A DNA stretch of 62,154 nucleotides, filler included, from Hausera hauseri (lineage: Eukaryota), in the NCBI GenBank assembly GCA_046269625.1. It is 10 parts of 10 records of this genome, joined end to end, with 100 filler letters (N's around TTAATTAATTAA, not from the genome) between each part and the next. Parts side by side here need not be neighbours in the genome. Positions count along the whole stretch, not along the records: positions 23,937 to 32,685 come from JBJURY010547674.1; positions 32,786 to 38,892 come from JBJURY010139760.1; positions 38,993 to 43,239 come from JBJURY010678329.1; positions 43,340 to 47,875 come from JBJURY010537453.1; positions 47,976 to 54,327 come from JBJURY010108987.1; 5 more parts are not named here. One strand, given 5' to 3'. Every line of letters starts with the position of its first letter. Position 1 is the first letter of the stretch. A program made the translations under genes and the position numbers. Below the pieces are notes generated by a model, which searched no databases, was not told the origin of the DNA, and was given only the letters and a program-made list of their open reading frames with translations. Shown in pieces: positions 13,778 to 54,327 of the stretch.

Positions 13778-13830
13778 TCATAATCATAATAATCATAATA
13801 ATCATAATCATAATGATCATAATCATAATA
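13778..13830 (+). repeat. (CATAAT)n-type microsatellite at contig end
   Basis: Seen directly in the sequence. Confidence 0.9.
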
Positions 13831-31500: not shown

Positions 31501-32660
31501 TGGGTAGCATGGGGACTGTCTACTCGTACAGTATAATCTGTATTTTCATATTGTGCTTTCTTCGAAGGAATTTGGTTGATAAGGTTTTGAATTTCTGTGA
31601 TTTTCAACTCGTCTCTGATTTTGAATATTGTACTTAAACGAATTTTTGTACATTGTAAAAATTCTCGAATAATATTCGAAATATTTTCCTTGGAATCACA
31701 TTTTTCATGACCAATCAAATTTTGGTTCTCAAAGTACATCATTTGACATATAAAAATGAAATCGTCTGCATTGGAGAGATTCTGATTTAATGAATAGATT
31801 GTCTCATTGCAAAATAAGCACTGTTTTGCATCTTTTATTTCGCGCGATGATTGTGCACAGTCAAATAGTATTAGCACGCGACGTGACAATAAATACGTCA
31901 TTTTAATGTTTTTGGACATATACACTTCAACATTCGGCAGGAAATCTTTATCCGAGTTTTGAACATTATATCCGAAATAAAGCAATATTGCATCTGAAAT
32001 TATGGCAATATTTTCCAAACATATTGATTGTACACGAATTAAATTATCAACATCGTACAAGGGCGTTGCATTCATTGTCGTGTATTTGCGAATATAAATT
32101 TCAATATCATCTGAATATTCAGTCAGAAAAGTATCGATTAGGTCATTGGCCATTTGTTCTTGGAATATAATTTTCCTCGTTGATTCAAACTATTTAATTT
32201 CATACATTGGTGAAAACTTTTCAGAACATTTTTTCTGTACTTCCAATGCAAAATTCAAAAACAATTTTTTATGTTGGACAAACCTTTTTAGAAAATCCGA
32301 CAATTGAATTGGCAGTGCTTTCTGTAAAAATTCTTTTACTGATATTGTCCATTGTACCTCATTTTCATTGCTGATGCATAACAAGTCAGTTGCCCGTATT
32401 CAGTCTAAAAGGCAAATAGGGTCTCGTATAAACCAGTTTTTAAACATTCAGTACAAAACAGATATTGACAGTTTGAAATATTTATCCTTTCAATATTTAA
32501 TAGATCTGCATAACAAATTTGTATGTTGAATCATCATTGGAGGCATTATTTGCTGCTTGAACGAATTCTAAAAGATTCTTTTTAAAGGAATTGAATTTAA
32601 GTTCTGCATCCTGCTTTGATTGCATCTTGAAGAAATAGCTGCAATTTCGAATATATCAAT
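31500..32660 (-). pseudogene. Unidentified decayed coding sequence fused upstream of the vWA fragment
   Basis: ORFs 31341-32153 and 32190-32384 look like broken protein-coding DNA. No motif recognised. Confidence 0.4.
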
Positions 32661-32666
32661 ATAAAG

Positions 32667-32677
32667 TTCTGACACCA
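32667..32677 (-). promoter_or_regulatory. tRNA-Leu-type primer binding site (copy 1)
   Basis: TGGTGTCAGAA is complementary to the tRNA-Leu 3' end ...TTCTGACACCA. Confidence 0.65.
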
Positions 32678-32818
32678 ATTTATAGNNNNNNNNNNNNNNN
32701 NNNNNNNNNNNNNNNNNNNNNNNNNNNNNTTAATTAATTAANNNNNNNNNNNNNNNNNNNNNNNNNNNNNNNNNNNNNNNNNNNNAATAATTTTTAAGCT
32801 AAAAACTTCTTCCAAAAT

Positions 32819-32832
32819 TGGCGTCACGAACA
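32819..32832 (+). promoter_or_regulatory. ERV primer binding site (tRNA-Lys-like)
   Basis: TGGCGTCACGAACA heads the retroviral leader and imperfectly resembles TGGCGCCCGAACA. Confidence 0.6.
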
Positions 32833-33269
32833 TTTTCCGTTGAGAGTTCGTCCCGACGACGGGGGACCGGGACGTTTGGCTGATCACCAGGAAGAAACAG
32901 TTTTTCCTCCTCCGAACCTCCGCTGTGACTTCAGGAGCGGGAGGGGCGTCCTGATTCACCGGCCGGGGACCGACTTCACACGGAACCGAACCAGGAGACA
33001 GAAAACACCCGATCGCCAGGTAAAGGAAATTTACTTTCGTTTTATAAAAGAAGTTTCGTAAGCTCTGAAAGTTAAATTAGGAGCCGAGGGTAGGTTTTTC
33101 GACAGGGAAACTGAGTTACGTCAGCGGCGTTCTGACATTTGTAGGTTTGTTCACTAATAACAAGCTGAGTGTAGGCTCGTCCACGAGACAAGTTGAGTGT
33201 AAGCGCGTTCATGTAGGAGGTGGTGCACTTTCGTTCACGATGCGCGGAGGCAGACTTGCTCACGGAGCA

Positions 33270-33465
33270 GCTGAGTTTTGTAGGTTTTGTTTATAATAAC
33301 AAGCTGAGTTTGTAGGTCCGTTTAAATAACAGACTGAGTCGTAGGTTCGTCTTGATAAAAGAGGACTGAGGATTTTATTTTAACGTAAGTTCGTCTTGAC
33401 TAAAGAGAACTGAGGATTTTATTTTAAGTAGGTTCGTCTTGCCTAAAGAGAACTGAGGATTATAT
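33270..33465 (+). repeat. Tandem repeats of about 42 bp in the ERV 5' leader
   Basis: GTAGGTTCGTCTTGACTAAAGAGAACTGAGGATTTTATTTTA-like unit x3, preceded by related shorter CTGAGT..GTAGGT units. Confidence 0.8.
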
Positions 33466-33526
33466 TTTATTTTACATAAAATTGTGATTTTAAAAACGTG
33501 TAGAAAACGTGAAAAACCAGAAAAAA

Positions 33527-35608
33527 ATGGGAGCTAAAAACACTTCCGAACCGGAGGAGGAGTATATACCGCGCGGCCCGATTGCAGATGAGATGAGACG
33601 AAAACACGGTGAATTTTGTGTCAGATTTGTGCAACAGTGGCATTATAAATTCGGATTTCCAAAACACGGCTCTTTAGAACCGGATCATATTGCACATCTT
33701 GAGGAAAATTTATTAAATCAGAAACAGAGAATGATGGCTCAGAAAAGAATCCCACAAGAACAGATTGTAACAATGCATAATCACGAGGAAGCCTTTAGAT
33801 TATGGAAAAATGAATCAAAAAATTTAATAAATAAAGCAGACTCAAAGATTATACAGATGACCCAGAAAGTGGTGGAGCTTCAGAAGAAAAAAGTGCAAAC
33901 TGAAAAACAAATACAGAAAATTAAAGACAAAGAACAACCTGAAAAGTCTGATATAAAACACAAATGTAACAAATCTTTTTCTGCCTTCTCTTCTGTCTTT
34001 GCATGTACACCGGAGAGCCAAGGACCTCATCTAACCACCCCCTCCACCTCCCTCTACCCATCACTCACTGACCTGCAGCCGCCTCCTTACACACATGAAA
34101 AAAAAGAAACACTCTCTGCACTGAGACCTGTCTGGGCTCTGTCAACCGATGATGATTATGTGGGACAACGTGCAGCTCCTGCTCCAGCACAGCTGGATCA
34201 ACCTCTTCACGGTGCAGGTGCAGCAGGACCAGATCCTCAAAGTTTATCAGGAACATCTGATCCTCAGGTAATGCAAATCACATCAACAGGTCCTCCAGCC
34301 TGGGGAACACGAGCAAAGACAGCTTCTGAGAAACAACAGATGGAGGAAAAGATTGCACAAACAGAGACTGAACTGAAAAAGGCTAAAAAAATGCTGGCCA
34401 AAGTACAAGAAGCAACAATTACACCAGGAACAAGCGCATTACACACCTCTGAGGATGAAGACTCAGAAGAAATATCACAAGATGATAACAGTTCTACTTT
34501 TCCTAAATTACAGGTCCACACTATGCCTATGCTTGAAGTTGGAGGAGCAGATGGACCGCAGCTCGTCTTCAGAACCTGGCCACTCGCTGACCTGAAAGAG
34601 CTGGCAAAACAACACCTCCCAGATCTGGCTCAGGGAGGGCTTGAAGTGGGTACAGCACTCGACCACATGGTAAGAGCCATCCGACCCACCCTCACTGAAC
34701 TCAAACTGGTTCTGTCTTCAATCTATGGCATCAACTTCATCACAAGAATAGGGCCAGAACTGTTTGATGCTGCAAACCTTCAACAGCGCCTCACTGCAGT
34801 TAATTATGATGATGCTGCAAACAATAACTACAGACAAGCCATACAAGCAATTACAACAAAAATTACTGAACAGTATGTACAAAGACCTGAGTATGGAAAG
34901 ATAACAGACACCATACAAGCAGCCCAAGAATCTCCACAAGATTACTTGGAGCGTCTGTTGCAAGTTTTTCGCACTCACTCAGGCATTCCACAGCCAAACG
35001 CAGCTGACTGGCGTTCTGCCGCACAGCCCACTGCATATGAAACCATACTGTGTCAGAACCTGATGAATGGGTTCCTCCCACCAATTAAAAAGAGCATCCA
35101 ATCCACATACATTGGATGGAAATCAGGCCTCCGCCTAGAGGAGCTGATGCGCCATGCACACCATGCATGGGAACAACACAATGCAGAAGAGGCTCAAACT
35201 CAAAGAAAGAAGATTAAACAGACTGAACAAGCTCAACTCACACTTCTTAAAGCTGCACAACAAATGACTTTAAACACACAGCCTGCACAACCAATCCCAC
35301 ACGCCTCACGCCACTTCCAGTCATATGGGCCCGACCGACCAAGTCCATTCTACCCAAATGGTCCTCAGCCATGTTTCCTCTGTGGAGGAACAGACCATTG
35401 GGCACGTGAATGTCCTTTAAAGAGAGGCCCTCCAAGAGGAAGAGGAGCCTACAGAGGCCAAAGCCGCCCACACTTGAGCCCACAGAACAGTTATCCAAGA
35501 CAAGATCCATCCCAAAGTCCACAGAGACATCAGCCCAATGCACCACAGCATGGCCACAGCTATGGCCCACCTAGAGGCAGAGACAATTACAGAGGTCATT
35601 CTACCTGA
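33527..35608 (+). CDS. gag: Gag of an epsilon-like/class I fish-type endogenous retrovirus
   Basis: MG start, PSxxLYPSL and PPPY, MHR-like QAAQESPQDYLERL, CCHC knuckle CFLCGGTDHWAREC. Ends TGA-CTAG. Confidence 0.92.
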   Translation: MGAKNTSEPEEEYIPRGPIADEMRRKHGEFCVRFVQQWHYKFGFPKHGSLEPDHIAHLEENLLNQKQRMMAQKRIPQEQIVTMHNHEEAFRLWKNESKNLINKADSKIIQMTQKVVELQKKKVQTEKQIQKIKDKEQPEKSDIKHKCNKSFSAFSSVFACTPESQGPHLTTPSTSLYPSLTDLQPPPYTHEKKETLSALRPVWALSTDDDYVGQRAAPAPAQLDQPLHGAGAAGPDPQSLSGTSDPQVMQITSTGPPAWGTRAKTASEKQQMEEKIAQTETELKKAKKMLAKVQEATITPGTSALHTSEDEDSEEISQDDNSSTFPKLQVHTMPMLEVGGADGPQLVFRTWPLADLKELAKQHLPDLAQGGLEVGTALDHMVRAIRPTLTELKLVLSSIYGINFITRIGPELFDAANLQQRLTAVNYDDAANNNYRQAIQAITTKITEQYVQRPEYGKITDTIQAAQESPQDYLERLLQVFRTHSGIPQPNAADWRSAAQPTAYETILCQNLMNGFLPPIKKSIQSTYIGWKSGLRLEELMRHAHHAWEQHNAEEAQTQRKKIKQTEQAQLTLLKAAQQMTLNTQPAQPIPHASRHFQSYGPDRPSPFYPNGPQPCFLCGGTDHWARECPLKRGPPRGRGAYRGQSRPHLSPQNSYPRQDPSQSPQRHQPNAPQHGHSYGPPRGRDNYRGHST

Positions 35609-36601
35609 CTAGAAAGGGGGAGTGGTGATGATGGTCCAGAGGCCCAAACTCCAGGTGTACATACACACACAGCTCTGAACACACCCATCTCGACTGCATA
35701 CACTTACCTTAAATACATTCAAGCAGCACACAGGAAGTTACCTATGCTGGCAGTAACAGTTGAAGGGGTCACACTAGATTTTCTGGTGGACTCAGGAGCA
35801 ACACAATCCCTTATAAGGCATGACTGTTTCCCTCATGCACCTCCCAGTGGACAGACAGTCCTCTCCACAGGAGCATCAGGATTAGCAGTCACTGAACCTT
35901 TAACTACTCACTTAACCTTGATTGATCCTTTTGATAAAACAGAACACAAACATCAGTTCTTACACTCAAAATTGTGTCCAGTTAATCTTTTAGCTAGGGA
36001 TCTGATGTTAAAAATGAACTTGACCATCTCATGCACTTCAGAAGGACTTCTGGTGTCCAAAAACATGGAAACCATGTTTTTAGAGACTCCTGACATCCTT
36101 TATGTCTATGAGTGGCTATTGACAGACCAAGACATGAACACACGCTTTGTTCAGGAAGCAAAACAAAGGCTGTTAACAACAACAGATTTTATGTCTCCAA
36201 ACAAGCTCCACTGCACAGCACACGTGACTCCTAACAACACTGATTTAGGTAGCTTGTTTATGCAAACAACACCCACTGGACTACAGATTACAGATCTGTG
36301 TTGGACTAACACTTGTTGTTTCATACTTGTACATCTAACCACTGACCAACTTGAGTTTTTCACTGTTCCAGACTCTTTCCCTCACATCTCATTAGCAAAA
36401 CACACGAGTGTCCAGTGGTCATCCATAGGCCCACACGCACTGTCTGCCTATCTAGCAACAGACTGGCAAGAGCTATGGCAAGGATGTTTCTACTCTCCTT
36501 CTTTACAGATGCACAAACAATCCATGGGTTTTCTTTCACCACACTTCTCCACTGTGGAAGTGACACCCAACCTTGAAGTGATAGATGCATCATCACAATG
36601 A
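35609..36601 (+). CDS. pro: Retroviral protease plus 2H phosphoesterase-like domain, in frame with gag
   Basis: FLVDSGA and NLLARD protease motifs, then LHCTAH and PHISL HxT/S motifs. Confidence 0.85.
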   Translation, partial: LERGSGDDGPEAQTPGVHTHTALNTPISTAYTYLKYIQAAHRKLPMLAVTVEGVTLDFLVDSGATQSLIRHDCFPHAPPSGQTVLSTGASGLAVTEPLTTHLTLIDPFDKTEHKHQFLHSKLCPVNLLARDLMLKMNLTISCTSEGLLVSKNMETMFLETPDILYVYEWLLTDQDMNTRFVQEAKQRLLTTTDFMSPNKLHCTAHVTPNNTDLGSLFMQTTPTGLQITDLCWTNTCCFILVHLTTDQLEFFTVPDSFPHISLAKHTSVQWSSIGPHALSAYLATDWQELWQGCFYSPSLQMHKQSMGFLSPHFSTVEVTPNLEVIDASSQ

Positions 36602-38892
36602 CTATCTTTGGTTAAGCTGACCATTGATGATCCACTTCTGTCTGAAGTTCCCAACACATTATGGGCTAAAACAAAATATGATGTAGGGTTAATTAAAGGT
36701 CAAGAACCAATCCACATCACACCTAAATCGTCCTACAGACCAAAAATAGCTCAGTACTCACTGAAGCCTGACGCTGTAGAGGGCATCACTCCAGTATTTT
36801 ATTCTCTTTTGGAAGCTGGTGTAATTGTTCCCTGTCCCACTTCACCAGTGCGTACACCGATCTTTCCAGTAAAGAAAATACGCCCGACACCGCCTGATGA
36901 ATGGAGATTTGTTCAAGACTTGAGAGCTGTCAATTCAGCTGTCCAGGCTCGAGCACCGATTGTTCCAAATCCTTATGTCATCTTGTCGCAAATTCCGACA
37001 GGCTCCACCCACTTTTCGGTGATTGACTTGGCAAATGCTTTCTTTTCTGTTCCTGTCCATGAGGATAGTCAGTTTTGGTTTGCTTTTGAGTTTTTAGGTA
37101 AGTCTTACACCTTCACACGCCTTTGCCAAGGTTATTGTGAGTCACCAACAATCTTTCATGGAGCACTTAATGACAGCTTGGAAGGATTTACATTACCACC
37201 TGAATGTGCTCTGTTACAATATGTTGATGACTTACTTCTGGCAGCACCAGACAAGTCTACTTGTGAGATACACACTATTCGTCTCCTGCAGTATTTGGCT
37301 CAGGAAGGACACAAAGCATCACTGTCCAAATTACAGTTTGTACAGCCTGAGGTCACTTTTCTTGGACACAAAATTACAGCTAATGGTAGGGAACTTGCGA
37401 GCACTCGCGTTGCAGCCATTGTCTCTTTACCTCTACCGGTGACAAAGAAACAACTTATGTCATTTTTAGGACTGTGTGGCTATTGTAGACATTTCATTCC
37501 TAACTATGCAGAACTCGAGGGCCCTCTTAGATCCATCTGTCATGAAAAAGGCCTACAAATGAGCTCTAAAGTTACATGGACTGATTCAGCTTTAACTGCT
37601 TTTGAGACTTTGAAAAAGCAGTTACAACAAGCACCCACCCTGGGCATTCCAGATCCACATCGTCCTTTTATCCAGACGGTGGATGAAAAAGGGGGATGCA
37701 TGACTTCAGTTTTGCTACAAAAACATGGTGACCGGCTTAAACCAGTTGCATATTTTTCAGCAAAACTTGATCCAGTAGCAGCAGGTCTACCTTTATGTTT
37801 GCGCGCTGTGGCTGCTGCAGAAAAATCAGTATTGGCCAGCAGAGACATTGTGGGATACTCTGATTTGACCTTGCTTGTACCACACTCTGTCACACACATT
37901 CTAAACGAACAAAAGACAGCTCACCTGTCTACTGCGCGATGGTTAAGGTACCACACTACATTATTGGACATGCCAAACATCACTGTTCAACGTTGCAACA
38001 TTTTGAACCCAGCTACTCTTCTTCCAGGACCAGACGATGGAACACCACATGACTGTCTTGCAGAACTTGAGATCTTATGCACTCCTAGACCTGACCTTTC
38101 ACAAGAACCTTTACAGGACCCTGACTGGGAACTTTTTGTTGACGGATCTTCTTCACGTGACCAACTCACAGGTCATGTTAAAAGTGGTTATGCTGTTGTA
38201 ACCTCTACTGACATTATTGAAGCTTTACCTCTTCCATTTTGTTCAGCACAGGCTTGTGAGCTTGTAGCTTTGACACGTGCTTGTGAATTATCTGAAAACA
38301 AATCTGTTAACATCTACACCGACTCCAGGTACGCTTTTGGTGTTGTTCATGACTTTGGAGCACTGTGGAAACACAGACGTTTTCTCCGCTCAGATGGACA
38401 CCCAATCTCAAATCACAAACTTGTATCTCGACTTTTAGATGCAATAACTCTTCCATCTTGCATTGCTGTGATCAAATGTGCAGCTCACACCAGACGTACA
38501 GACCCCATCTCAGAAGGAAATGACTTTGCAGACACAGCTGCAAAAAATGCTTCACTTTCAACCACACCTGATCCAAACACATTGTCTTTAACCACTCTCA
38601 CAGATCAAACCACTCCTTTTACAATCACTGACCTTCAGAAACACTCCACCTCAGCTGAAAGGGCTGAGTGGAAAAAATTAGGTTCCACATTCACAAATGG
38701 TGTCTGGTATGGTCCTAACACAAATCCTTGCTTACCTAAACATTTCTTCCCTACATTTGCATGTTTGACACATGGTATTGATCATGTGTCCAAAGGAGGG
38801 ATGTTAAGAGAAATCAACACACACTGGTTTACTGTGAAGTTTTTGAAAACTGCTGAACAATACTGTGACTCATGTCTGATCTGTGCCTCACA
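36602..38892 (+). CDS. pol: ERV reverse transcriptase, RNase H and start of integrase (cut off by contig end)
   Basis: WRFVQDLRAVN, IDLANAFFS, LCQGYCESP, QYVDD, FVDGSS, YTDSRY, HGIDH..CLIC. Confidence 0.95.
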
Positions 38893-38992
38893 NNNNNNNN
38901 NNNNNNNNNNNNNNNNNNNNNNNNNNNNNNNNNNNNTTAATTAATTAANNNNNNNNNNNNNNNNNNNNNNNNNNNNNNNNNNNNNNNNNNNN

Positions 38993-39760
38993 TTTTAAGT
39001 GCTGTTGAATCGTCTACAACAGTAAGCAATGCTTTGATGGAAGAGGGTAAAGAGAAAAGGAAATACAAACGAAGATCGACAATGTTTGTAGGAGTGACGC
39101 CTAAGGCACTCGATTGAGAAATAGAGGTTTTAAGAAAATCAGACGGCTTTTGAGTTCCAATAGCATGCTCATTAAAATATTTTTGTATGATATTGTCGAT
39201 TGACGGATAGATAATATGTAGGACCGATTCGTAGAGCATGTCATATGAAGTTGAAGAAGTTAGCATCTCAAAAAGATCGATGATTTTTTGTTTTATTTGT
39301 GATGGAAGGAGTAGTAACAAACTGTTAGCACACAGAAAAGAGTCGGTGATGTGGTTGGCTTTAAGCCATTGGAAATGAAATTGTAGCCAGGTAAGGCTAG
39401 AAGTGGTCTTATCTAAAAAGAAATCTACACAAGGAAGGTTGTGAGAAGCAGATGGTGTAGATTCAGCAGGGAGACGACCAGATTTACTTTTGGTGGAGTT
39501 TTCAGCATAAGAAGGATCGGTGTCTAATCCACCCCAGATGAGCAAGTGGAGAGTAAGGTGGATGATTGAAAAAGAGAAGGAAGAATGTCGATCATAGACA
39601 TTAAGGATAGAGCCATGATGCGATAGATAAAAGTCTGAGGTGTGAAGCAATAAGGCCAAATGAGTGTAAAGGCATTGTGCACTCTCTCTGTATGTCGCAC
39701 TGAACGTATACTTATTATTAGAAAAAACCAAAAGGGAAAGGGGATGTAATGCAGCGCGGG
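38993..39760 (-). mobile_element. Gypsy gag 5' part, same family as 24340-29400
   Basis: FFLDKTTSSLTWLQFHFQWLKANHITD parallels YFIDNEKSSKTWLHFHELWLQANGITD. GTQKPSDFL occurs in both. Confidence 0.85.
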
Positions 39761-40429
39761 CGGGCATGCTCGGTCCCTCAACCAGACAATTTCTTGATTG
39801 CGCATGTAGTTTGAGTAACATTTCATTATTGTCAGGAGAATTATAATCCCTTTGTAATGGTGGTTGTGGTGATGGTGATGATCTTTAGTTGCTTACATTT
39901 CGACCGAAATCATTAAAACCGGGACCACTTCTCGATGAAGACAGATCTTTCCTAATAATGACTATCATAGTTCTGAGATGTCATAACTCTCGTGTGAATT
40001 ACTAACGTTTTTCGAGATTTAAGATGATGGAATACCGATATATGAATATCTATCATAATTACCTTTTAACGATAACGACTCGGGCAATCGTTCTTGATAT
40101 TTTTGTGTCAACTGAACTAATCCCACTAAATCATAAACAGCTTTGACAGATTGTGGATTGCTTCGGTTCGGATTGGTTAGTGCATTTAGCACATTGGTCA
40201 GTACATTTGTATGTGCCTTTCCAAACCGATTCATGTACAGTCTTATTTCGCAATTGTGTACAATTTTTGAATTAAATAAATAAGTGGACAAGAAAGCTTC
40301 TTCAGCAGACACGAATTCGGCTGGTCCGAATGCACAGGAATTACTATAGTGATCGGTTTTTAGTTCACCAATTTTCTCTTTAAATATGTCATTGAGTTCC
40401 TTCATAGAAGTTGTAAAAGTAAATGGACG

Positions 40430-40760
40430 TTGTCGGCAAGTAAAACGGAGCTCGATTTGTTTATTGCATGCATTGCAAGCATTCAGAACGGAATGTTTCT
40501 GTTCCATATGTAATTCGTAACAGAAACAATGTCGAGAATTTAGAACGCCGCAAAGACGAGAATTTCAAATGCTTTTCTCTTGCTAAGCACAGAAATTTAT
40601 ATCTTCCATCCATTAAATCGCTACTGACTGATGGAGATGGATCATTAATTGGAGGCAAATTAGCAGGATCACTTTGCGTGTGAAGACGAATTGCGAAAAA
40701 ATTTTTCTTTTCGTTTCTCCATCAATTCTAAGATTCTTCTTGAAGCACCATTAATAATCA
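40430..40760 (-). pseudogene. CREBBP: CBP/p300 fragment (end of HAT domain to start of ZZ finger)
   Basis: MEKRKE..FFAIRL..LPPINDPSPSVSSDLMDGRYKFLCLAREKHLKFSSLRRSKFST, then CNACNKQIELRFTC after a frameshift. Confidence 0.88.
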
Positions 40761-40849
40761 AGTCAATGTCTTTCAGAACAATTCATAATAGTTTAGTCTT
40801 AGAATCCTGAGAAAATTGTAGTTCAGATCTACGTATATTTTGATTGCGA

Positions 40850-41280
40850 CGATCAATATTTTGAAGATCAGTAAAAGGTTTTCCTTTATCGTATATATTA
40901 TCGAATCGTGGAGCTACCAACAAAATACTATTTGGCAGATATTTTGAAGTGAATTCTTTATAGAATGCCATTGTCAATAGAGAATACATTCTTGGTCGAT
41001 GATTTACAATTGGAGTTAATAATTCCGTGATGACGTCTCTCGCAGACGGTCCAATAGAAGATGGTCAACCGAATTTGACAGTCATTTTCGTAGATTAAAA
41101 TTTTTGCCAATTTTAAATTATGCTAAATGACTTTTTCTTTGTGCAAACAGCTGCATGCATTGGCAATTTGCGTCCTGAAATATCGCGTCTGGGCTTCCGT
41201 TATTGATTTTCTGCATTTGTGCAGTTCCAACAGCGACTTAAATATGCACAATCCCAAAACAATATAATAAACTTGATTCT
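40850..41280 (-). pseudogene. PLK1: Polo-like kinase fragments with internal deletion
   Basis: YIVLGLCIFKSLLELHKCRKSITEAQTRYF..LHKEKVI*HNLKL..TVKFG, then RPRMYSLL..YLPNSILLVAPRF. Confidence 0.85.
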
Positions 41281-42331
41281 CTCTCTGCACCGAAATGACT
41301 ATGGGAGCAGAAAATCTCCGCCAGCAAAAAACAAACGAACTTTCAATGATCTCTTCAACGTGAATAACGATGAGATTCAGTTGACTTGCGGACGATTCGT
41401 CGTCGGTATTTAACTGATTTTTATTAACAGACGCATTACGCGACTGAAAACTTCGTATTTCTATACCGTCCAATGAAGTATATGTACACTTTTCCTCATT
41501 TAAAGACAAATTATTATAATGTCCACTTCGACGTCGTATGTCAGTAATTCTGGTCAATGGCAAATTATTTTTCATCTGATGCGCACTGATCTGAGAGTCT
41601 GGATCGATTTCTTGACGGATTGAATTATTGTTTACGTATGATATCTCAAGGGCGACTACACCATTCCAAATATTGCTTGTCGTGGACTTTGTGCTTTCCA
41701 CTGATAACAATTCGATAGCCATGTTAGAATCCTGAAAATATTTCCAGAATCCTGATTCAGTGACGACCATGATCATGATGTCATCGACATTAATTCTAAA
41801 TTTGTGAGCTATATTTGCACGAACTGCACAGGGCTGGCAGTGTTTATCCACATCGCTGCAAATATTTGTTGTCCTTCATATATTATTGTCCTTTTCAACA
41901 AAACAATAATACAACGGCTCCATTGTTTTAGCTGGAACTGGAAGACTACGGCAAAGATTCGGTTCCAATTTGTTCTGTCGAGTATGACAATTCGGCCAGA
42001 CAATAACCAACTGTTGATATGTGGCGAAAATCGAATGACTTCAGGAATTGTTCTGGTTGACGATTTCCTGCGCTTCGAAATACAGAATATTTTTTCTCGG
42101 TTTTTTGACTTTCTTCGGTTCAAAAACGACACCGAATTTCATACGTTCGTGGCAATAGTTGAATAGAAACAACAGAAACTCCTGGGCATCCTGTTGATCG
42201 TTGCTTTGGAAATTGCGTTCGGTATTTGACAATTCCAAACGGAAATCATTGGACAACGAATTACAGTCGACTTGTGACAACCAGAGACTTTTGAGAAACA
42301 TGGAGAATTTAGTTAACAACATCGAATTCAT
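41281..42331 (-). pseudogene. USP31/USP43-like ubiquitin-specific protease fragment
   Basis: FLKSLW..SNDF..NDQQDAQEFLLFLFNYCHE (QQD box). Later segments ESGFWKYFQD and RRFSAPIVI recall USP31/43. The catalytic Cys box is absent. Confidence 0.7.
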
Positions 42332-42369
42332 AGTATCTGAATTTTTCGGCGATTTGCTATCTTAATTCT

Positions 42370-42382
42370 ACTTCTGACACCA
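42370..42382 (-). promoter_or_regulatory. tRNA-Leu-type primer binding site (copy 2), preceded by CA-AAT; candidate LTR 42386-42593
   Basis: Minus strand reads ...GCCA AAT TGGTGTCAGAAGT. The upstream AT-rich tract has AATAAA and a TGT start at 42593. Confidence 0.7.
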
Positions 42383-43339
42383 ATTTGGCTCCAGTAATAA
42401 ATCCAAAACTTAGTATTAAGCCTTTATTAAATTTCAAATCAACATAAAATCCATAATCTAATTAACAAATTTTTTGTACTATACGGAAATGAAAAATTGG
42501 CTAATTACAATTTATCATGAACTGAAGATGAACAGAAACATTAAGAGATAGAAAAATGAATTTACAAGAAATCCTGATCAAATGATAATCACAATATTCC
42601 GAAAATATGATTTTTAACCAATATTTCTCAAATGTTTGTAAGTCAGTCTAATTTCATCATAAAACATAAAATCAGGATCAATGAGTAGAAATAAACTCGG
42701 ATACTCTTTGAATGAACTTTGCATCCTGTACGGGGATTCTGAGGATTTTATAATAATCTTTATTATCTGCCTTATATAAGGTTTGTCATCGGGACTGAAT
42801 TGAGGGAATGTATCTAAGACTGAGTACAACGTGCAGTCCAAACTCACGAGTCAAAATCCTGACCGATCGTAATTTGACATTTTCCTTAAATGCTTTCTGT
42901 GTTAGATTACAAAATAACATTGTGATAATCAATGAAAGATCATCTTCAAACTCTTCACTCTTGAGCAAATTACCGATCGTTGCTCCCGATACAATCAATG
43001 AGCACTTTTAACAGATATGATCGGTGTTGCATAAGCAACGGCCGGTTTTTGTGTTGTTCAAGAAGCATTTTGGCCAGCGATTTATCCACTTCGTCAATAC
43101 GCAAAATGATCGTATACATTTTCAGAGCAAGTAGAAGAACAGCGACAAAACCCACTACTGAACACGGCATTGACTGCATCCCAATCATCGCCATTTTGGT
43201 GTGGACACGAGTTGTGTCCGCGACCGCGACACCTCTATANNNNNNNNNNNNNNNNNNNNNNNNNNNNNNNNNNNNNNNNNNNNTTAATTAATTAANNNNN
43301 NNNNNNNNNNNNNNNNNNNNNNNNNNNNNNNNNNNNNNN

Positions 43340-43340
43340 C

Positions 43341-43406
<66 letters not shown>

Positions 43407-43423
43407 AACAACAACAGCAACAA
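43340..43423 (+). repeat. (CAA)n microsatellite at contig start
   Basis: Seen directly in the sequence. Confidence 0.95.
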
Positions 43424-43890
43424 AAGGAGAAGGGACGACTTTGCCTTCCGAAGGTGCTAAAAGCTGCTTGACGCTGAAATTAAATAGCTATAAAAAACTA
43501 TGTGGCGTTAAATCCCCAATGTGGAAACTGGGGAAGTTTATTCTGATTTGACTTACTTATTGTGTGTTTTTGATTGTGATTAATAAAAGTATTTGAGTTT
43601 ATGTTTTGTATTTTAGTAATACTGCATTTGTCAATGTATGTTGGTAATAACAGGTCATGAAAAATGATGTGTAGCGCGTAATTCGTTTATGTAACATTTC
43701 CTTCCAACTTAAGCTTCATTCCCTTGTTAACTTAAAACTACGTAAAACAAAAGGCAAAAACAGTGTACAAAATACGTTATTGAAATATAATACATGTACA
43801 ATAGAAAAAAATGAGGAAAATCACAAATTGTCAATACTCTGGCTGGACTCTATTGCATATTTGAACTGGCCTGTCGGTCCATATTTTATT

Positions 43891-46800
43891 TCAAATGCCA
43901 ATGCCCATACGCCCAACTCTTATTTCGCCCCACCCACTTTCGCTTGTCATCGCTGCATGACAAAGCAATATTTTTATTTTGATGGTATACAGATGGTGCT
44001 CAATCGATCGTATAGTCCTTTGAGACACAGCAGTCTTTCCTTCTTCTTCTTCTTGTCTATCATAGACACGGCGATAATCACCGTTAATTATTTCCGTCTG
44101 TTTCAGATGGATGCTTTTTGTCCGCATTTTCGGCCCACAGTCTGTCAGAAGACTGTAACACTTTGGGCACAAAAATATCCATTCCCTGTATTGAACCCGG
44201 CCTTCACTTTCGTCCTTGAAGCAGTCGATTTTGTTTGTTACCACGCTTCTGTACAGTAAATGGTTCTGTGAGTAGCTGGACGTGTCTAATAGTCCACCTG
44301 ACATCATTTGGTCTCGATTGATGTTTTTCAGCTTAAGAGAAAAGCTGTCTGTGTCACCAGCAACGATAATGGTCTCACAGCCACCGCCGCCGCCGCCGCC
44401 GCCGCCGAACATTTGCCGGTAACGTGCAATACTGGAGCTCGTACATTCGCAACTTGCTTAGGTACAATACGACGTGTCTGATGTAGCTTGATCGGTCCAG
44501 TACGAATTCTTCTTTGCTTAGAAGCATGGCGACCAATCCATCGGCAATGTGCATTGACCGCCTAAACTGATCCATGCTGGTGTACGTAGCCAGTCCTTTT
44601 TCGTTGTTGCACAGGCGCACATTAAGCCAACTCTTTAGATTTTCCACTGTTTTCCCACACAGTGAATACTTTTTGAACTTGTAATAGTCCTTTTCGAACT
44701 TTGCGCAAGCTGTGGCTCGTTTCCCTCAATTTCCATCAATGTACGCCTTGAATATTGGCGCCTGATTGAAGCGGATTGCATGATGCCGCTGTGGGACGCG
44801 TACACCGAGCTGCATGTAAAACTGCACTAGACACCAATGAACCACGTAATTTGATTTTGGTTAATGTGTCATGAGCAGCTTCTTTATTTTTGAGCCGCCG
44901 GACGGACATTGGCTAATTGGTGCGACCGGCAGTTCATCCAAACAATCATGCAGCTCATCTGATACCACGAGATCGACATCCTCGAGATCGACCTCCTCCG
45001 ATTGAGCTGTTTTCAGCTGTTGTTGTGTCTGGCGCCCTCAACAAATTTTCCAGTATTGTGTCCAGGTCTTGTTTGTCGACTATCCATTCGAATGAACCGT
45101 ACGGCAAGGGTTGTGAAAGCGCCCAGCCGTACAGGTTATTAATATCAATGTACAACATTGACATTGTATCATCATCGTTATCACTGGTTATGTGATGTTT
45201 GTTGACAAATGTCATGCCGCCACGAATACCAACATCAAACAGTCGGTATATTTCGGGGTCTTGCAACAGCTCAATTTCCCTGTCCAGCGACATTAGTGCT
45301 GATGCTCAACTCATCCCCAGTATGGAGTAAAAGTTTAGCGGCTCCAACCTATCTTTCGCCAACGCCTTAGCACGAAATGTCTGAAACACATCGGCTAAAT
45401 AGTACACGTCCAGTTTCAGGTACTGGAGCATGTACTCCAACATGTTTCTGCAGCCAAGCTCTGTCCACCCTTCCTGTGCTTTGTGGTGCACGTCCTCTGT
45501 GATTCCGGCCCACTATGGCGGCAATTCATCTGTTGTCTGAAGCCGCTCGTACGACACAGCAAAGTCATACGGGAATATGCCTTTGCTGCGTGCAATATTC
45601 ACGGGGAACTGCGTCAGTGTTAGCGGCACATCCGGCAAGGCATTTACGAGCTTTGCTGCAAGCTCATTGAGGAACTGCAATGAATCAAGAAATCGTACCT
45701 GAAACCGCTTTATGCGTGCCGATAAGGACAGGTACTTTTCCATCGTTGTTCGGATTATGGATATCTCCAAGTGTGGAAATCTGTTGATAGCCCATTTCAG
45801 AATATGGTGACAGTCATAACCCCTGAAGTTATGAAATGTCACCGGCAGGAATGGCCGCACCCGTCTTGCCAAATTGCATTAATTGCATGCTGCTCCGAAG
45901 TATCGACCAGTGAAATTATCGTGATCCGGTACTAGCCGTTCCTGTGCATCGAACGGCAATATTTTGCGGCACAGGTAACATTTGTCAGTGGCAGCGAAAA
46001 GCAGTGGTACATATTCGTCTGTCGAGACCAAGGGTTTATTAGTGCTACTATTCCAATACCACGGCGCGATTTCCGTTTCCACTATTGCCTTAAACTGATG
46101 CAGAAAATCGCGGACACAGTTCCATCCATGAAAAACGTAGTATTGTGGTTGTCCATCGGCTTTAATTGGCATAACCAGCATTCCAACGGCGATTGGGACA
46201 TACTTTTGGTCGTAGATGTTGTGCCGTGGTAAAATTGCCTCGATATCAGCATATACCACATATGCCGGACTGTCGATTTTTGGCCAGTCACTGAATCTCA
46301 TTTCCTATTTGATTGGCACGACATACATTGTTGTTCCTGTTGCATTTCTCCTGCACAGCGCCACATGCTTTTCCAATGTAGACATATGGGACACCATTTG
46401 CAGTGTATGCGTTTTTGGACAAAGTGATCATGGTCCATGTTTAGTAGTCTATCCAAATTTGTTACTGCCACATAATGAAAGTTTTCTGCATTCTCCAACA
46501 GCAACAAATTTACTGGGCGTCCATTTAAGTTCCGACTGTGGTAGATTATGTCTACATAGGGATTTTTGTATATTTCTTCATCTGTCAGTATCTCTATAAT
46601 TGTGTTGGACCGGAACACGTTGATTACCAGTGTCGGATTACGCCGTTCAAAAGCCGCATTGGTTTTGAGTTTCATCTGCATCCAACATACGTCGTAGTCC
46701 AATTCTGAGAAATACTTCCTGTACTGCTTTGGACAATTTGCATGTCTGGACACTTGATAATATTTCAATATGGCCAGAATGATGTAAACAAAGCAGTATT

Positions 46801-47815
46801 CGTCGTTAGTATTTTGTACATTCACTACAGCCAGAGACTGCTTCAAGGATGCAGGTGTCGGTATGAATGAACGTCCGGACAGGTAAATCATGTCACTCGA
46901 CTTAATCAGAATAAAACCGAGAGTGATAATTTTTACAATTCGCCAACCACTGCCCTTTTCAGCGTACTTGGCGATTTTTTCGTCAAGCTTTTCACCTACA
47001 TCGGCAACAAAATCCTCAGAGTATGGTACGGCTCGATGTGACAGGTACCATTGTTTCCTGTCACCCTGCAAATTTTCAAATTCTGCAAGTGCATAATATT
47101 GCACTTTGCAGTCGTGTTGTTGGAATTTGGTTATCTCTAATTCCAACCGGTTATGCGCATTAGCGGTATATCTTTCAATTGCGTCGCTGTTTTCGCCGAC
47201 ATGTACACCTTCATGTCCACGTACGATCTGTTCAGGTCGTACTTTACAGTAATGGGCGGTTCATGTTCCTCCTGCTGCTGCTGTTTCTGACTTCTGTTGT
47301 TTTGAAAGTATTCGCCAAGGCTTGCTGATGCTTGACGTTTCCTGCTGCTGCTGCTTCTGGCTGCGTCCATTGATGTTTCCTTTTTGGACCTCTGAAACTG
47401 GTTCAAGTGGTCCATGTGGTTGTTGTAGAATTGTTCATAGTTGACTTGTGTCTCAACTACAGAACAACCGAGACATACATAGGCCCGTTTACCATGCACC
47501 GTTGTCGTTGTTGTTATTGTTGTACTATAGTACTGCTCTATTGCACTATGGCAACCATTAACATCATACACCTTACAAGTGCAGTAACGTGGGTATGTGC
47601 GGCAATGCACATGCATGATCTTAGACCGCGTGAACAGATCAAGATGATGCTTGTGCATTTCATAAAAGTCGGCGTACTAGCATGTGTTTTGAATAAAACA
47701 TACGGGACACAGGTACGTGTCCTTGGCCACTGAATAATATTTGGCAATTTCCATGTGGCACTGTCCACCCTCATGTATGCGGGAGACGGAATACATGGGA
47801 TATTGGGAACATTCC
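43891..47815 (-). pseudogene. Polinton/adintovirus-type protein-primed PolB, frameshifted (copy 2)
   Basis: Collinear with copy 1: KGSGW, YADIEA, FHNFRGYD, KGIFPY, GIRGG, LYIDINNLYG, SLCGKTVEN, AGDTDS. (GCC)n expansion at about 44383-44407. Confidence 0.9.
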
Positions 47816-48124
47816 TGAATGATAAACAAATTAAAGTAAAAGTTAAACTAAAAACAAATAAAAATGTATTAATTANNNNNNNNNNNNNNNNNNNNNNNNN
47901 NNNNNNNNNNNNNNNNNNNTTAATTAATTAANNNNNNNNNNNNNNNNNNNNNNNNNNNNNNNNNNNNNNNNNNNNAGTTGCGAGTAAAAGAAGAAAAAAA
48001 GAAGAGCGAGAAAAAATTATGCCTACTAGCGAAAGAAATGAAGAAGCTTAAGGGGCTTAGGTTAATTACAAAAATAAGTTATTAAAATGTATGGTTAATG
48101 TATATTTAAGAAAATCCACAAAAT

Positions 48125-51100
48125 CTAAACAATTTCATCTAATTTTGTTTTCTTTACATCACCAAGATCTTCTTGACTTTCTTCCTTTCGTTTCAACGAC
48201 GATGTTTCATTGATCGTCTGAAATGATGAGTAGATTGTATCAACGTATTGGCACATGTGTTGAACATTCTCCATGTAACATATACGAGATGAGTCAACTA
48301 CATCTGTAACCATTCTCACTTTGACATCCTCTCCAGAAAGAACACGGTTGACATCCGAATAATGCTCTTTGGTCACCAATGCCAATTTGGTCGTCCTCTG
48401 ACGCAGAATATTAAAGGAACCTTGTAATTCCCGACATTGAGTAAACAAAGAAACTCTACAGAACACGTATAAACCAAGTCTAGCACGAGACATAGCGACA
48501 ACTAAACGTCGAATATCCCTCAAATGACCAACAGATTTCGTACGTACCAATGACAAAATAATATAATCATTCTGTTGACCCTGAAATCGATCAACTGTTG
48601 TAACAATACTTTGTGATTCGATATCACCGCATCGTTTCTTAATAATATCTCGAATCAAATGTTTCTGTCCATTGTACGTCGTAAGGATCGTGATTTTATT
48701 TGCCGGATATCCAATTGCTCTCATATACATATACATTGCTACGCAATATTCGGCTTCAGCAATATTCTGAATAAAATGCGGTGTTGGTTCCGATTCGCCT
48801 TGACCGAGATAATTTTGTACATCAATCAATTGATAATCATACAACAAACCAACATTAGCAATCGAATATTCGACATTATGATGAATACATGGCAAATCCT
48901 GTAATAATTTATAACGCCAACAATACAATTGACGCAATGATGAACGTGATCGACCTTGGGCATCTAATTGAATAAAGGGTACCGATAATTTAATCAGACG
49001 ACTAAACATTGATTGACTCATATTACAATAATTTTGAAAAGTCATATTTTTAATAACCGGCGGTAACTGATTATGATCGCCAATCATTATCCAACGTTTT
49101 AATCGATTTAATTTTGATTGATCGGGTTTTTGTAATAATAATGGAATAAATGTTTCAATTTCAAGTATTTGTGCTGCTTCTTCAATGAGAATATTGTCAT
49201 ATGTAAAATTTAATTGTATCAAATCCCGTCGACGTAATGCGCTGTGTGTACATGTCATAGCGATAATTTTTGCATGTTGAACTAACAATGAATGGGCGCG
49301 GGCTAATCCGTTACGGATTAATTCAAATGAACGGAAATCATCCAATTGACAGAAAATATCAACGAGATGACGAAAACAACCGATGGCAATTTCCATATCA
49401 CTGGCAAATGACACACCGGGGAATAATTGACGAATGGATTCAGCCGATTGGAATTGCAATGGAATAAAGAAATTGAGAAATGGAAATTCGCCGACGAATT
49501 GATCAATTGTCAACGAATTGGAATATTGATCAAATTGACAAAACGATTTCTGGAAATGCAACCATCGAGGCATAATTTCCGACATGAGAAAATGTTGAGC
49601 TGTTTCACAAGTATACAACGGTTCGTCACGGCTTTCAGTCGGATTCAATTCGATACAGCCGAGACTGGCAGATAATTTCTCAACTTCACCAAGTAAATAC
49701 AGCCGTTTCCAAAGAACGAAATTCACTCGGCCGTATTTACTGAAATCCTTCGTTGTTTCCAGTGCTTCTTCTCCATGACCGAGACGCAACAGATGTCGTT
49801 CATCGATACCGAGGTTCATAATCTTCTCAAACAGCTGATTCAATGCCTGATTACTGTGCGTGACGATTAATGTTCGCTGATTTGGATAATTCCGATAGAT
49901 ATTGTTTATTATCTGCACAGCAACATCCGTTTTTCCTGTACCCGGTGGACCGACAACCAATGTCAATCCGTGTTGCATACCCGACCGAATTGCCTCAATC
50001 TGAGCTGCTGTGAATTCAATACGATTGCCGGGCACCTCGATAGGTTTATCCGGCAGTCTGTCGAATTGCGACCAGCGAAGGGGATCGGTAAATTTCTGTG
50101 CCAATTTCAATTGGGGTTTGTACGGTTCAACTTGCAATATCGGACGATTGACTGATCCGTCTGTTCGATTTTCCGTCGATTTTAATGTCCGATCGTTTTC
50201 CGGTAACGGGAATACTAATCGATACGGCGAGATGACTGGCGAACTGTCCGCCAATTTGATTTCGTATTGCGGAAAACTTTGTCGCAAATGATCCAAATTG
50301 AGGAAAGTATCACCCCAATCTTGTTTGGCAATGTATTGAGACGTCATGGTCGAATAATGGGCCGCTTCCGGCCTCTCGTAACCGAGTAACAAATCCTGTA
50401 GCCATTCCGGTACGACAAATTGATCGTTCATCAAATCTCGAATCGTTTCCAGTACCGCTTTAAAATTATTTTCCTTCGGTTTCCGTCTCATGAAAATGTT
50501 GAAAGTGCTGTAAACATCTTTCGTTTCACTGTCATCGTTGATAACATCATCATTGTACTGACATGGATCCAGTTTCACTCGCCACGTTCTTGTCTGGCCT
50601 GGTAAATTCGCCAATTTCGATCGTTTCTCTTCTTCTGGAATAATTCTCCCGTTTTTGTCGAGAATTCCTTCTATTTCACACCCACGCACGTACAACAAAC
50701 CGGCCTGTGACGCCATCGATTCACGATTGTTGAATCGCTGTCCGATTTTCAATTTCGGATAAACGGTAATGAGAAAACACGGATCGTGTTTGGCGAGACT
50801 TTCCCATTCTCGACAGATGACATCGGAACAATTCAACACAATCGACACGCCTGCACTAACGACCCGTGGATAACTGCAGCCGATTTCCGGTTTGCAGACT
50901 TCAACAATTTGAAATCCATCAATGGGCATTGCCATTCGAGACCAACCGTGGAATATCGTCTCACCATTCTGCAGTGGACAAATGACGCTCAAACAATGCT
51001 CAGTGTCCTGTTTGATTTCGTAGGCTGTTTCCAATCGGAGCAAATCGAAATTTCTCATCAAATAATCATGAAATGTCAAATATTGCACACCCAAATGAGG

Positions 51101-52279
51101 AATTGCAAAGTTCTGTAACGTTGAAGAACGTTTCTTAAACGAATAGGAAAACATTCAGATTAAATAATCTTTGGAATAATTAGCTTTATTTGTCGTCGGG
51201 ATTAAACTGATCAAACTCGCCAAATCCTGCAGATCACTTTCGTTTTGTTCCAACAAAATCTTCATTAATTCATTATTTTTCTCCAGCCCATCACAAATCG
51301 TCAGCCATAATTTCCGTATCGGTTCTTTAAACGATTTAAATGCTTCCCGTTGCAATTTCAACAATTTATCACGATGACGACATTCCAATTCGGAATCCGT
51401 CAACGAATTACCCGATATTTCATCAATTTCAAAATTAACGTAAAAATCCAACATTTCCAACAGTTGACAAAAGAGTTTCGTTTCGTCAGATTTTCTGGAC
51501 AATTGAGAACGTTGAGCACGAACTATCATGTATTTGTCTTCGATAATAGCGTTCAAATATCGTCTCGTTACGAGCATACTTTCTAAATTGATAAATAACA
51601 CCAAAATATTCTCAAAATAATGCAACATTAACGAATCAAAATTCGAATTATCAAACGAATCAACAGATTGTAGAAAACTGTCAATTAATTTCGGTAAAAA
51701 TGTCCGTTTAAATTTGAAATTATTTACATCAGGACTATTTTGCTTTTCATCATGCTTCAACAATTTCCCATATAACTTCTTATAGTGTTTACTTTTCCCC
51801 AATTCTTCGTTTAATCTCGTCGTTGATAAACAGGTCCTCATTCCAATTGACAACATTTGTTTTAATTCATCAAAATTCAATTGATTTTCAGTCATGATTA
51901 GAAAACAATTGTAGAACAATTGTTCCAAAGTCCGCTTTTTAACACTTACAGAATCATCGTTATCATCAACTGGAGCTTCTATATCGATAATTAAATACAA
52001 AGCTCGTCGGAAAAGTGTACGAAAAACAATTTCGCTTGCGCATAAAACTTCCCATGGATTGACTTTTTACTGAGTATTTTATTGACAATTACACAAACGG
52101 ACAAAACAATTTCTTTTCAGAAATTTGATGTGAGATTTGGCCAAAGATATTTCTCTAAATATTGGGTAAATTCGACATTTTGAACTTGTTTATGGGAAAA
52201 TCCATGGCGTAAAATTTATTCGTTGTATATTTGAATGACTGTAAGTAATTGGCTTAGTAATTTCATCTGAATTATCCAT
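48125..52279 (-). pseudogene. AQR: Aquarius (IBP160) spliceosomal SF1 helicase, intronless; 3' 1009 codons open, 5' part disrupted
   Basis: EFTQYLEKYLWPN, YLTFHDYLMRNFDLLRLE, RRKPKENNFKAVLETIR, GPPGTGKT, EEAAQILEIETFIP, IGDHNQLPP, TVDRFQGQQ, RRLVVAMSRAR. In-frame stops at about 52217, 52118 and 51156, plus frameshifts. Confidence 0.95.
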
Positions 52280-52285
52280 ATGAAA

Positions 52286-52298
52286 ACTTCTGACACCA
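52286..52298 (-). promoter_or_regulatory. tRNA-Leu-type primer binding site (copy 3), preceded by CA-AAT; candidate LTR 52302-52443
   Basis: Minus strand reads ...ACCACA AAT TGGTGTCAGAAGT TTTCAT ATG. Confidence 0.72.
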
Positions 52299-52440
52299 AT
52301 TTGTGGTTAATGTGATAATGAAAGATGGTAAGTTATAAATTCCATAAAAAACAGGAAGGCTGATAATTAAAGTTTTCATTAAACTACAGATCCTTTTAAC
52401 AATTGAAATCAATTATCTTTAATCAATGTTTTTTTACTAT

Positions 52441-52500
52441 ACAATATTTATATACATAATATTTATATACACAATATTTATATACAATATTTATTTATAT
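52441..52500 (+). repeat. Short AT-rich tandem repeat (ACAATATTTATAT)
   Basis: About four imperfect units. Confidence 0.7.
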
Positions 52501-53009
52501 AATAATACTCTTCTGCCTGCTAGAAGGGAATATTGTAGAAGTGTGAGATGACGTCAATATCTTTACAAAAGTTATTTTCAAGGACATTTGGTAAATTTGT
52601 AAATTGAGGAAACACACTGAATTGTCGAGATTGTCATCCAGGAATAATGGATAGTAGAATATTTTTGTTGATGTAGGTCTATAAATCTAAGACGAATGGA
52701 TACAAGAACTGATGACTTCCCATAACATTTTGTCTGTCATTACATGAAAATATCTGGAAACTGGCCTTTCAGTGCTTTTATCACAACTTACATGACTGTA
52801 TTACATTCATCATATTGACTTTTTAACATCATACTATTTATCGTAAATTTCAGAAGCCGTAAATCCAACAGTTCCTAGCATCGTATCCAAAATCGTCAAG
52901 CTGAACATTGAGATATTGATCCGTTGTTTGCTTTCTAAAATGAGAGTGTTACATGTTGGCGAGATTGCTATTTCCGCTTGAAGTTGAATTTTTACCTCTG
53001 AGGGAAAGA

Positions 53010-54327
53010 GCTGTTACCGAGACCGCGGCACCACATAACCCCCGTGGCAGGATGAAGATTACGAAGAGGAAAATAAATGGGGATTATATTAGGAAGAGAA
53101 GAACTTGTACCTATTCGGTTTTGGTACGTGTTAGACGTTGGATTCCATCTATGAACTTCTCCCTGCTATAAGTATAAAATATCACTTGGCGTGACCTGTT
53201 AGATGTTACTGGTGCTTGTGGAGTTGTTTGAGGGAGGGATATTGTGGATTTTTTGGTGCTGGAGGATGCTTCATGAAGAGGTGAAAGTGGAAAAGAAGCT
53301 GAAAAAGGAGAAGGATCACGCGAAGAATTGGGGATAGCAGTGAATCATGTGATGAAGATGAAATGAGTAGTGGATGTGCAGGCGATGAAGGAGAGACAGA
53401 TGGTGGGGGAGCAGTAGATGATGACGGAAGTGAAGAAAGCTGATTGTAAAGCGAGAGTGAATGCTTCGAAGGATTAAAATCATCAAAGAAATTATGTGAT
53501 GGCTCTGTTTCAAAAGGAGAAGTGCAAGGGAAGTGGTCGAGTGGTTGTTTGAGGTGTTTATGAACCTTGTATTGTTGACATGCTACGCATCCCTTGACCC
53601 AGATCTGTACATTGGTACGCATAGTTGGCCATACAGCGTGGCGTTGCAGTAGACGAAATGTGGCTTTTGAACCCGGATGATAAAGAGAGTGAAAGTGAGT
53701 AAAAGCTGTCTTTGTAGCGATGGAGCAAGAATGATTTTCTTGTTGGTCGAGTTGGAAGTGTCATAAGCGATGCCTTCGGTGATTTCAACAGATTTAAAAG
53801 CTTGGAGAATATCAGATGATGGCTGATTGCTTCTCAAGACCTCAGAGGAGAAAATTGGCTGAAATATAGTTGAGTTAACCGATCGCGAAAGAAAGTCCGC
53901 TACTAAATTTTCGGTTCCTGAAATATATTTCATGGAAAAACTAAACGTCGACAGGTATGATATCTGTCGTTCTTGTCTGGGTGAGGACTGTTTCAAAGTC
54001 GTTATGTGAAGTAGAGGCTTGTGGTCGGTTTGGATGGTAAATTGGTGTGAAAGAAGCAAGTGCTTGAAATGCTTTACCGCTAGAACTACAGCCAAGAGTT
54101 CACGATCGAATGTTCAGTATCGGCTTTCTGGTTGCGTGAGCTTTAGGGAATAGAATGCTAATGGTTCGTTGACGCCATTGTATATCTGGTGTAATAACGC
54201 ACCAGTTGCTGTGGTTGAGGCATCGGTAGTTAATATTAGTTCAGCGTTTGGCTTTGGAACGGCGAATATTTCAACAGATTTCAGACCTTCACGAAGGCGA
54301 TCAAATTGGTTTACTAGATCGTGAGTC
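53010..54327 (-). mobile_element. Gypsy 3' part (RNase H, integrase zinc finger, integrase core deleted); PPT near 53039-53043, LTR start 53035
   Basis: TDASTTATGALL, FDRELLAVVLAVKHF, TDHKPL, ENLVADFLSR, CVACQQYK. GGGGG-TTA-TGTGGTGCC matches the contig-5 element junction. Confidence 0.88.

Follow-up and report, generated by a model that had tools for sequence, protein, structure and literature searches.

The 62,154-nucleotide stretch of Hausera hauseri DNA analyzed here (the window; assembly GCA_046269625.1) consists of ten contigs joined through spacers of N. Three of them (contigs 5, 7 and 9) carry the same 15-mer, which is a primer-binding site (PBS) of the tRNA-Leu type at the end of a long terminal repeat (LTR). 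The reading that we favor, with some reserve, is that the three sites belong to divergent Gypsy elements with a CHCC-type Gag, and that the pieces of host genes behind them, including a near full-length Aquarius coding sequence (CDS), were likely copied from co-packaged mRNAs by template switching of the reverse transcriptase (RT). The contigs appear to share one architecture, LTR-PBS(Leu)-cargo-leader-gag-pol-polypurine tract (PPT)-LTR, as pieced together from overlapping junctions: pol-PPT-LTR-PBS in contig 9, LTR-PBS-cargo-gag in contig 7, and PBS-cargo-gag-pol-PPT-LTR start in contig 5. A first-pass annotation of this DNA had supposed that host cDNA replaced the internal region from the PBS onward. 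This does not hold for contig 5, which keeps gag, protease, RT, RNase H and integrase, or for contig 7, which keeps a leader and gag; replacement is possible only for the Aquarius unit. The assembly is shallow and built from short reads, and the evidence on capture consists of three dead copies. The host is likely a flatworm, judging from the placement of Aquarius in a protein tree.

Primer-binding sites and long terminal repeats

The three sites read as follows.

32667..32681, minus strand: site 1, AAAT and the tRNA-Leu(CAA) PBS, 11 contiguous matches, 4 nt from the end of contig 5
42372..42386, minus strand: site 2, AAAT and the PBS, 13 contiguous matches, 16/18
52288..52302, minus strand: site 3, AAAT and the PBS, 13 contiguous matches; bridged by a 441-nt read contig with 0 differences

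The exact 15-mer, matched on the plus strand only, is present where it was first reported and is the sole 15-mer common to at least three of the ten contigs; none of 100 order-2 Markov simulations produced any. Its assignment to tRNA-Leu is borne out by contiguous matches of 11, 13 and 13 bases (sites 1, 2 and 3; 12, 16 and 13 of 18 overall) to an antisense probe for the 3′ end of tRNA-Leu(CAA) (PMC7997516). An identical 12-mer serves as the PBS of Steamer elements (PMC8905726). The sequence CA-AAT-TGG is found, as claimed, at sites 2 and 3, while site 1 reads TA-AAT-TGG. A metagenome scan with a 17-mer returned at least 114 loci, at least 11 of them with the full 18-nt PBS; at least four of the latter are followed, about 1 kb on, by a CCHC motif, and at least two match RT. 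Because such ordinary Leu-primed loci (at least 4 among at least 114) show ACA-AAT-TGG, this is genuine LTR-PBS geometry. The 22 matches in a viral collection, most of them without extension toward the full PBS, were not used as evidence, and a 35-nt likeness of sites 1 and 3 was taken, beyond the 15-mer, as AT-rich chance.

The LTRs were delimited as follows.

52299..53035, minus strand: contig 9 LTR, between a G-tract and the PBS (shared-LTR tandem), with TGACGTCA at 52556 and TATAAA repeats (alignment, depth)
42383..43239, minus strand: contig 7 LTR, related to the contig 9 LTR over the first 34 nt and the last 100-165 nt, with a different, coding-like middle
23937..24477, minus strand: PPT at 24477-24469 and LTR start TGT at 24465; contig 5 ends in AAATTGGT

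Two findings identify the motif as an LTR primer-binding site: depth of repeat level stops where site 3 is reached, and the sequences preceding sites 2 and 3 have both termini in common. In contig 9, summed depth reaches 1,918-13,877 on the pol remnant and 3′ region and 402-635 over 52428-53063, just upstream of site 3, then falls to 61 in the bin that holds the PBS and to 0.8-20 across Aquarius. Summed contig depth does not equal copy number, and only the contrast between regions is used; depth and junction-bridging data cover contig 9. One public run contains this DNA; it may be the source of the assembly itself and hence is not independent support. The contig 9 LTR aligns with contig 7 at either end, by its first 34 nt with the very first bases of contig 7 and by its last 100-165 nt, up to the motif, with the corresponding place there (0/200 shuffles reach the score in either case); the sequence is AT-rich, which makes the matches weaker than they look. 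This homology is visible only by lenient local alignment with shuffles; blastn gave none. LTR starts read TGT at 24465 and 53035, and the 3′ end can be read as AAA-T-TGG or CA-AAT-TGG. One LTR is present per contig, and in contig 5 the motif is preceded by 4 nt only.

The LTR middles of contigs 7 and 9 differ, and only that of contig 7 (42560-43200) has a clear codon signal, in a test on shuffles whose controls reached 1-8/100. The LTR region of contig 5 (middle 23945-24350) has a weak PHM7_cyt match (23940-24362, E 0.006) and matches no solved structure. A kinase resemblance at 52705-52992, within the contig 9 LTR middle (52560-53000), was unsupported in further searches. Host coding pieces may have been captured in the variable middles too.

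Host coding sequence behind the sites

The cargo comprises the following pieces.

48125..52279, minus strand: cargo 3, near full-length Aquarius CDS (Pfam, protein alignment)
31605..32625, minus strand: cargo 1a, decayed coding sequence with an ATG start 41 nt after the 15-mer (codon score, 0/100 shuffles)
30908..31604, minus strand: cargo 1b, VWA3B-type internal fragment with frameshifts and one stop (tblastn E 6e-39 to 3e-53; Pfam VWA_3)
29950..30907, tentatively minus strand: cargo 1c, coding-like sequence with codon scores on both strands; homology searches blank
41798..42361, minus strand: cargo 2a, USP (UCH) domain fragment beginning mid-domain (Pfam and structure searches)
41057..41281, minus strand: cargo 2b, PLK1 kinase-domain fragment (E 3e-12)
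40461..40721, minus strand: cargo 2c, CBP/p300 HAT-ZZ fragment (E 4e-17)
40022..40480, minus strand: cargo 2d, possible RRM-protein fragment, a lead only (RRM matches at 0.85-0.89)

The first-pass identities of Aquarius, PLK1, CBP and the VWA3 piece (here VWA3B-type) were thereby confirmed. A USP domain is indeed present in cargo 2a; its best solved-structure matches are USP8 and USP2, and the label USP31 is a resemblance only. Cargo 2a likely runs on, by resemblance and codon score, to about 41285. A further PLK1 piece suspected at 40900-41058 could not be confirmed. Repeated homology searches gave no identity for the gene of cargo 1a, and its two top matches, both repetitive proteins, were set aside. 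The host sequence between PBS and leader measures 2.4-4 kb; the USP, PLK1 and CBP internal fragments of contig 7 are crammed into 1.9 kb, and all identified host pieces (5/5, three loci) lie in sense orientation to the element. The pieces were called intronless, which is correct insofar as they are colinear with homologous proteins (cargo 1b with 4/4 VWA3B-type homologues), although no parental gene was seen from which intron loss could be read.

The Aquarius start codon lies at 52279, 8 bases after the 15-mer rather than the 6 first given, and its Met aligns with the start of P0001, the closest protein (best among 8000 scored candidates; 78% identity in the core, 63% over 1365 residues). In a tree, the copy and P0001 form a group with six sequences from trematodes and cestodes (SH-aLRT 100); the tree is a quick search of 40 rows, 39 of 120 matches being hand-chosen, and shows a long branch. 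All lesions of the copy, namely 3 stops, 2 frameshifts and a deletion of 87 nt, lie 5′ of about 51110, and a 1009-codon open frame follows. The description of this cargo as decaying thus suits the 5′ 28% of the CDS but not the remainder. The 149 nt that follow the stop codon of Aquarius contain no poly(A).

Element interior

The interior of the elements, which contig 5 shows most fully, contains the following parts.

29351..29590, minus strand: element leader upstream of gag, homologous to 39528-39773 (0/200 shuffles)
28364..28509, minus strand: two CX2HX9CX3C (CHCC) Gag knuckles, at 28509 and 28417, in different frames
25238..28199, minus strand: decayed protease, RT, RNase H and integrase in Gypsy order (Pfam RVT_1, RT_RNaseH_2, rve; protease from its DTG motif)
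38993..39773, minus strand: contig 7 leader and 5′ gag, truncated by the contig end (tblastx 56% to contig 5 gag)
53036..54327, minus strand: upstream element of contig 9, with RNase H, integrase zinc finger (core missing), 3′ untranslated region (UTR) and G-tract (Pfam)

Behind the cargo of contig 5, and on the same strand, stand leader, gag, protease, RT, RNase H, integrase, PPT and LTR start, with all genes broken; contig 7 continues from its cargo into a homologous leader and gag, while contig 9 reaches its end after Aquarius without gag. The pol regions of contigs 5 and 9 are 66% identical over 747 nt, and a common 3′ UTR closes in both with a G-tract and TGT. On the element strand of contigs 5, 7 and 9, no tRNA-Trp PBS was found when up to 2 mismatches were allowed, and gag is not preceded by a second LTR copy in contigs 5 and 7. 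A CCHC Gag motif is absent from contigs 5, 7, 9 and 10, and searches with RT, RNase H and Gag pieces found no relatives. Judged by these motifs, the elements are three divergent CHCC-type Gypsy elements. They receive this name only, and are not filed as CsRn1 members, because a Leu PBS stands in place of the Trp PBS of that clade.

Proposed capture mechanism

From the arrangement of the sequences, we infer capture from RNA by template switching. The polymerase would quit the element RNA in the leader, copy one or several co-packaged host mRNAs and return to the element at the PBS. In the retroviral mechanism, the PBS is the end of the RNA template after first-strand transfer, and second-strand transfer pairs there. 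Packed internal fragments of unrelated genes are the product expected of serial template switching, and LTR retrocopies of several genes have been published (PMC5131818). Captures would have been independent in each subfamily, and the primer of the lineage would have switched from Trp to Leu; primer changes between related flatworm families have been discussed (PMC12471100). A capture hot spot behind the PBS is suggested, because three subfamilies, as divergent as 66%, bear different cargo at the same place. The copies are dead and their cargo is mostly decayed passenger sequence. That 3/3 copies bear cargo cannot be read as a rate, because cargo makes copies unique and hence assemblable; the unusually prolific system envisaged at first is likewise unproven, since short-read contigs of at least 4 kb are likely biased to copies with unique cargo.

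A bolder reading, which we consider doubtful, holds that the CHCC-Gag, Leu-primer lineage treats the PBS boundary as a permanent site of capture, to which host mRNAs are joined repeatedly and sometimes from the start codon, with gag-pol kept intact and U3 also loaded with host sequence. The elements would then be self-mobile transducers at genome scale, with whole host genes under an LTR promoter, and the 1009-codon Aquarius frame possibly a selected retrogene.

Evidence against capture and alternative explanations

Several findings weigh against template-switch capture. Neither a parental locus, an intron position, junction microsimilarity, a paired LTR nor a target-site duplication was seen in the contigs. 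The 3′ LTR region of contig 5 does not align with the other two LTRs (78/200 and 84/200 shuffles equal the score), and the low depth, with depth data for site 3 only, leaves room for mis-joins. The remaining points concern Aquarius. All six of its lesions are confined to the 5′ 28% of the coding sequence (for five of them, p is about 0.002). At columns 90% conserved among 50 other homologues, private changes number 6/63 and 10/459 in the copy, against 6 and 9 (of 458) in P0001, so that the copy strays no further from such columns than P0001. The segment 48986-50233 is a single unbroken read contig with no other contig there at 80% likeness, which counts because a young retrocopy should show a visible parent. 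It is possible that Aquarius is a young retrocopy whose parent went unseen, since the depth search filters some records.

For Aquarius only, a minority possibility of some substance is that the 3′ 3 kb represent a genuine intron-free gene, joined by mis-assembly or gene conversion to a decayed captured 5′ piece, or preceded by an LTR end with a primer remnant. The clustered lesions and the single contig speak for it, as does a branch length of 0.53 for the copy, compared with 0.43 for P0001. Depth rises to 17-20 over 50732-51367, and at five positions within 51264-51317 two read contigs differ from the window; four of the differences alter the residue, three of them to that of P0001. The 3′ part may thus be the true gene, mis-joined or converted. 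On the other side, the three stops of the CDS correspond to a neutral divergence of about 1.5%; over the range of 1-2%, a stop-free frame of 1009 codons has a 6-25% chance. Under looser thresholds, the last 660 residues contain 29 private changes in the copy and 14 in P0001. The PBS-Aquarius junction is spanned by the 441-nt read contig, and contigs 5 and 7 are left unexplained.

A composite of two families is improbable, namely non-autonomous Leu-primed elements (LTRs of about 200 nt) with the cargo as their interior, as the first-pass annotation had it, in or beside which CsRn1-type elements inserted later. A Leu PBS with LTRs of 145-220 nt is typical of Mag and Steamer/C-clade elements (PMC3286476, PMC8905726), CsRn1-like elements take a Trp primer (PMC2582038), the homologous block before sites 2 and 3 measures 100-165 nt, and Aquarius has no gag behind it up to the contig end. 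Yet the CHCC elements lack both a 5′ LTR and a Trp PBS that would be theirs alone and lie on the same strand in 3/3 contigs, the 34-nt motif after the contig 9 G-tract recurs at the start of contig 7, some 850 nt ahead of the PBS there, and contigs 5, 7, 9 and 10 show no CCHC Gag motif. Finally, it is hardly credible that the 15-mer is a promoter element of the host, or the relic of a spliced leader, before ordinary or retroposed genes, matching the tRNA by chance: an ATG does follow within 8 nt (site 3) and 41 nt (site 1), and flatworm leaders end in AUG (PMC12582326), but site 2 leads into the middle of a USP domain and matches the tRNA at 16/18, LTR-like termini and repeat depth lie directly upstream, and the three sites part in sequence directly after the tRNA match, where a leader would stay conserved up to the AUG.

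Other features of the window

Contigs 3 and 6 are CpG-depleted (observed/expected 0.37 and 0.43) and likely originate from vertebrate DNA within the sample. Contig 6 (32786-38892) encodes a retroviral gag-pro-pol with in-frame stops and, upstream, tandem repeats of 30 and 44 nt; it is likely a provirus from this vertebrate DNA. A fragment at 17190-17780, also in a CpG-depleted contig, is presumably a Helitron-like helicase. In the contig at 1-9390, the first 77 nt recur at the end (a circular or tandem unit), a 521-codon Cys/His-rich frame without a Pfam match spans 6987-8552, and another fragment is, by eye, presumably Tc1-like. Two decayed copies, about 80% identical, occupy 9491-13830 and 43340-47875; we take them to resemble a B polymerase gene of Polinton/adintovirus type, Pfam being blank on the one frame tested. 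A satellite array with a period of 67-68 nt and higher-order spacing of 135/203 nt fills 18429-23836. The last contig (54428-62154) contains what we take, by eye from translations, to be the decayed pol of a different type of Gypsy, along with Tc1/mariner transposase remnants. ARAGORN (tRNA) and Rfam scans of the window gave no match.

Comparison with known systems

The literature search found nothing on PBS-boundary capture or on Leu-primed CHCC/CsRn1-like elements, most subscription journals lying outside its reach. CsRn1-clade elements are abundant in flatworms (PMC12471100), and the clade is marked by a CHCC Gag, a Trp primer and an LTR end that can be AAA (PMC2582038). LTR termini TGT...AAA/ATA and target duplications of 4 bp are further marks of it. 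The elements described here share with PwRn1 and AgCR of this clade the CX2HX9CX3C Gag motif, the TGT start of the LTR after a purine tract and, on one of two readings, an LTR end in AAA; they differ in the Leu(CAA) PBS, the two knuckles, the 2.4-4 kb of host cargo, and LTRs with common ends but different middles (PMC2582038). Steamer/C-clade and Mag elements carry the same 12-nt Leu PBS right behind the LTR, and their LTRs are short, mostly 120-300 nt (PMC8905726, PMC3286476). Among the matches listed, Leu-primed metagenome elements have a CCHC Gag about 1 kb behind the PBS, as opposed to the CHCC Gag behind cargo found here. The giant Burro retroelements of planarians are likewise flatworm Gypsy elements with host-like domains; their extra domains are intact within the polyprotein and fixed over thousands of copies (PMC6431247), whereas each element in the window bears its own decaying cargo.

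The closest parallel is provided by LTR-mediated retrocopies (Tan et al. 2016, PMC5131818), in which host coding pieces lie within LTR-element sequence, several genes may share a locus, poly(A) is missing and one family (BLASTOPIA) has a recurrent switch site. As in those retrocopies, host sequence is flanked by the element, on both sides in contigs 5 and 7 and on the 5′ side only in contig 9, and the lack of poly(A) recurs in Aquarius. Part of the element open reading frames (ORFs) is replaced in 15/15 fly cases, while here the cargo stands between PBS and leader and gag(-pol) is kept: in contig 5, gag to integrase all follow the cargo. The term PBS does not occur in the main text of that paper. 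The capture process itself is thus already published, and the contigs described here would be a variant in which element genes are retained. In most published animal cases the captured sequence overwrites ORFs and so disables the element. If the capture reading is true, elements that take up cargo at the PBS and keep gag-pol could remain autonomous, strand-transfer models could be tested over many events at the fixed junction, and flatworm genomes would acquire false gene models and shuffled domains from this source.

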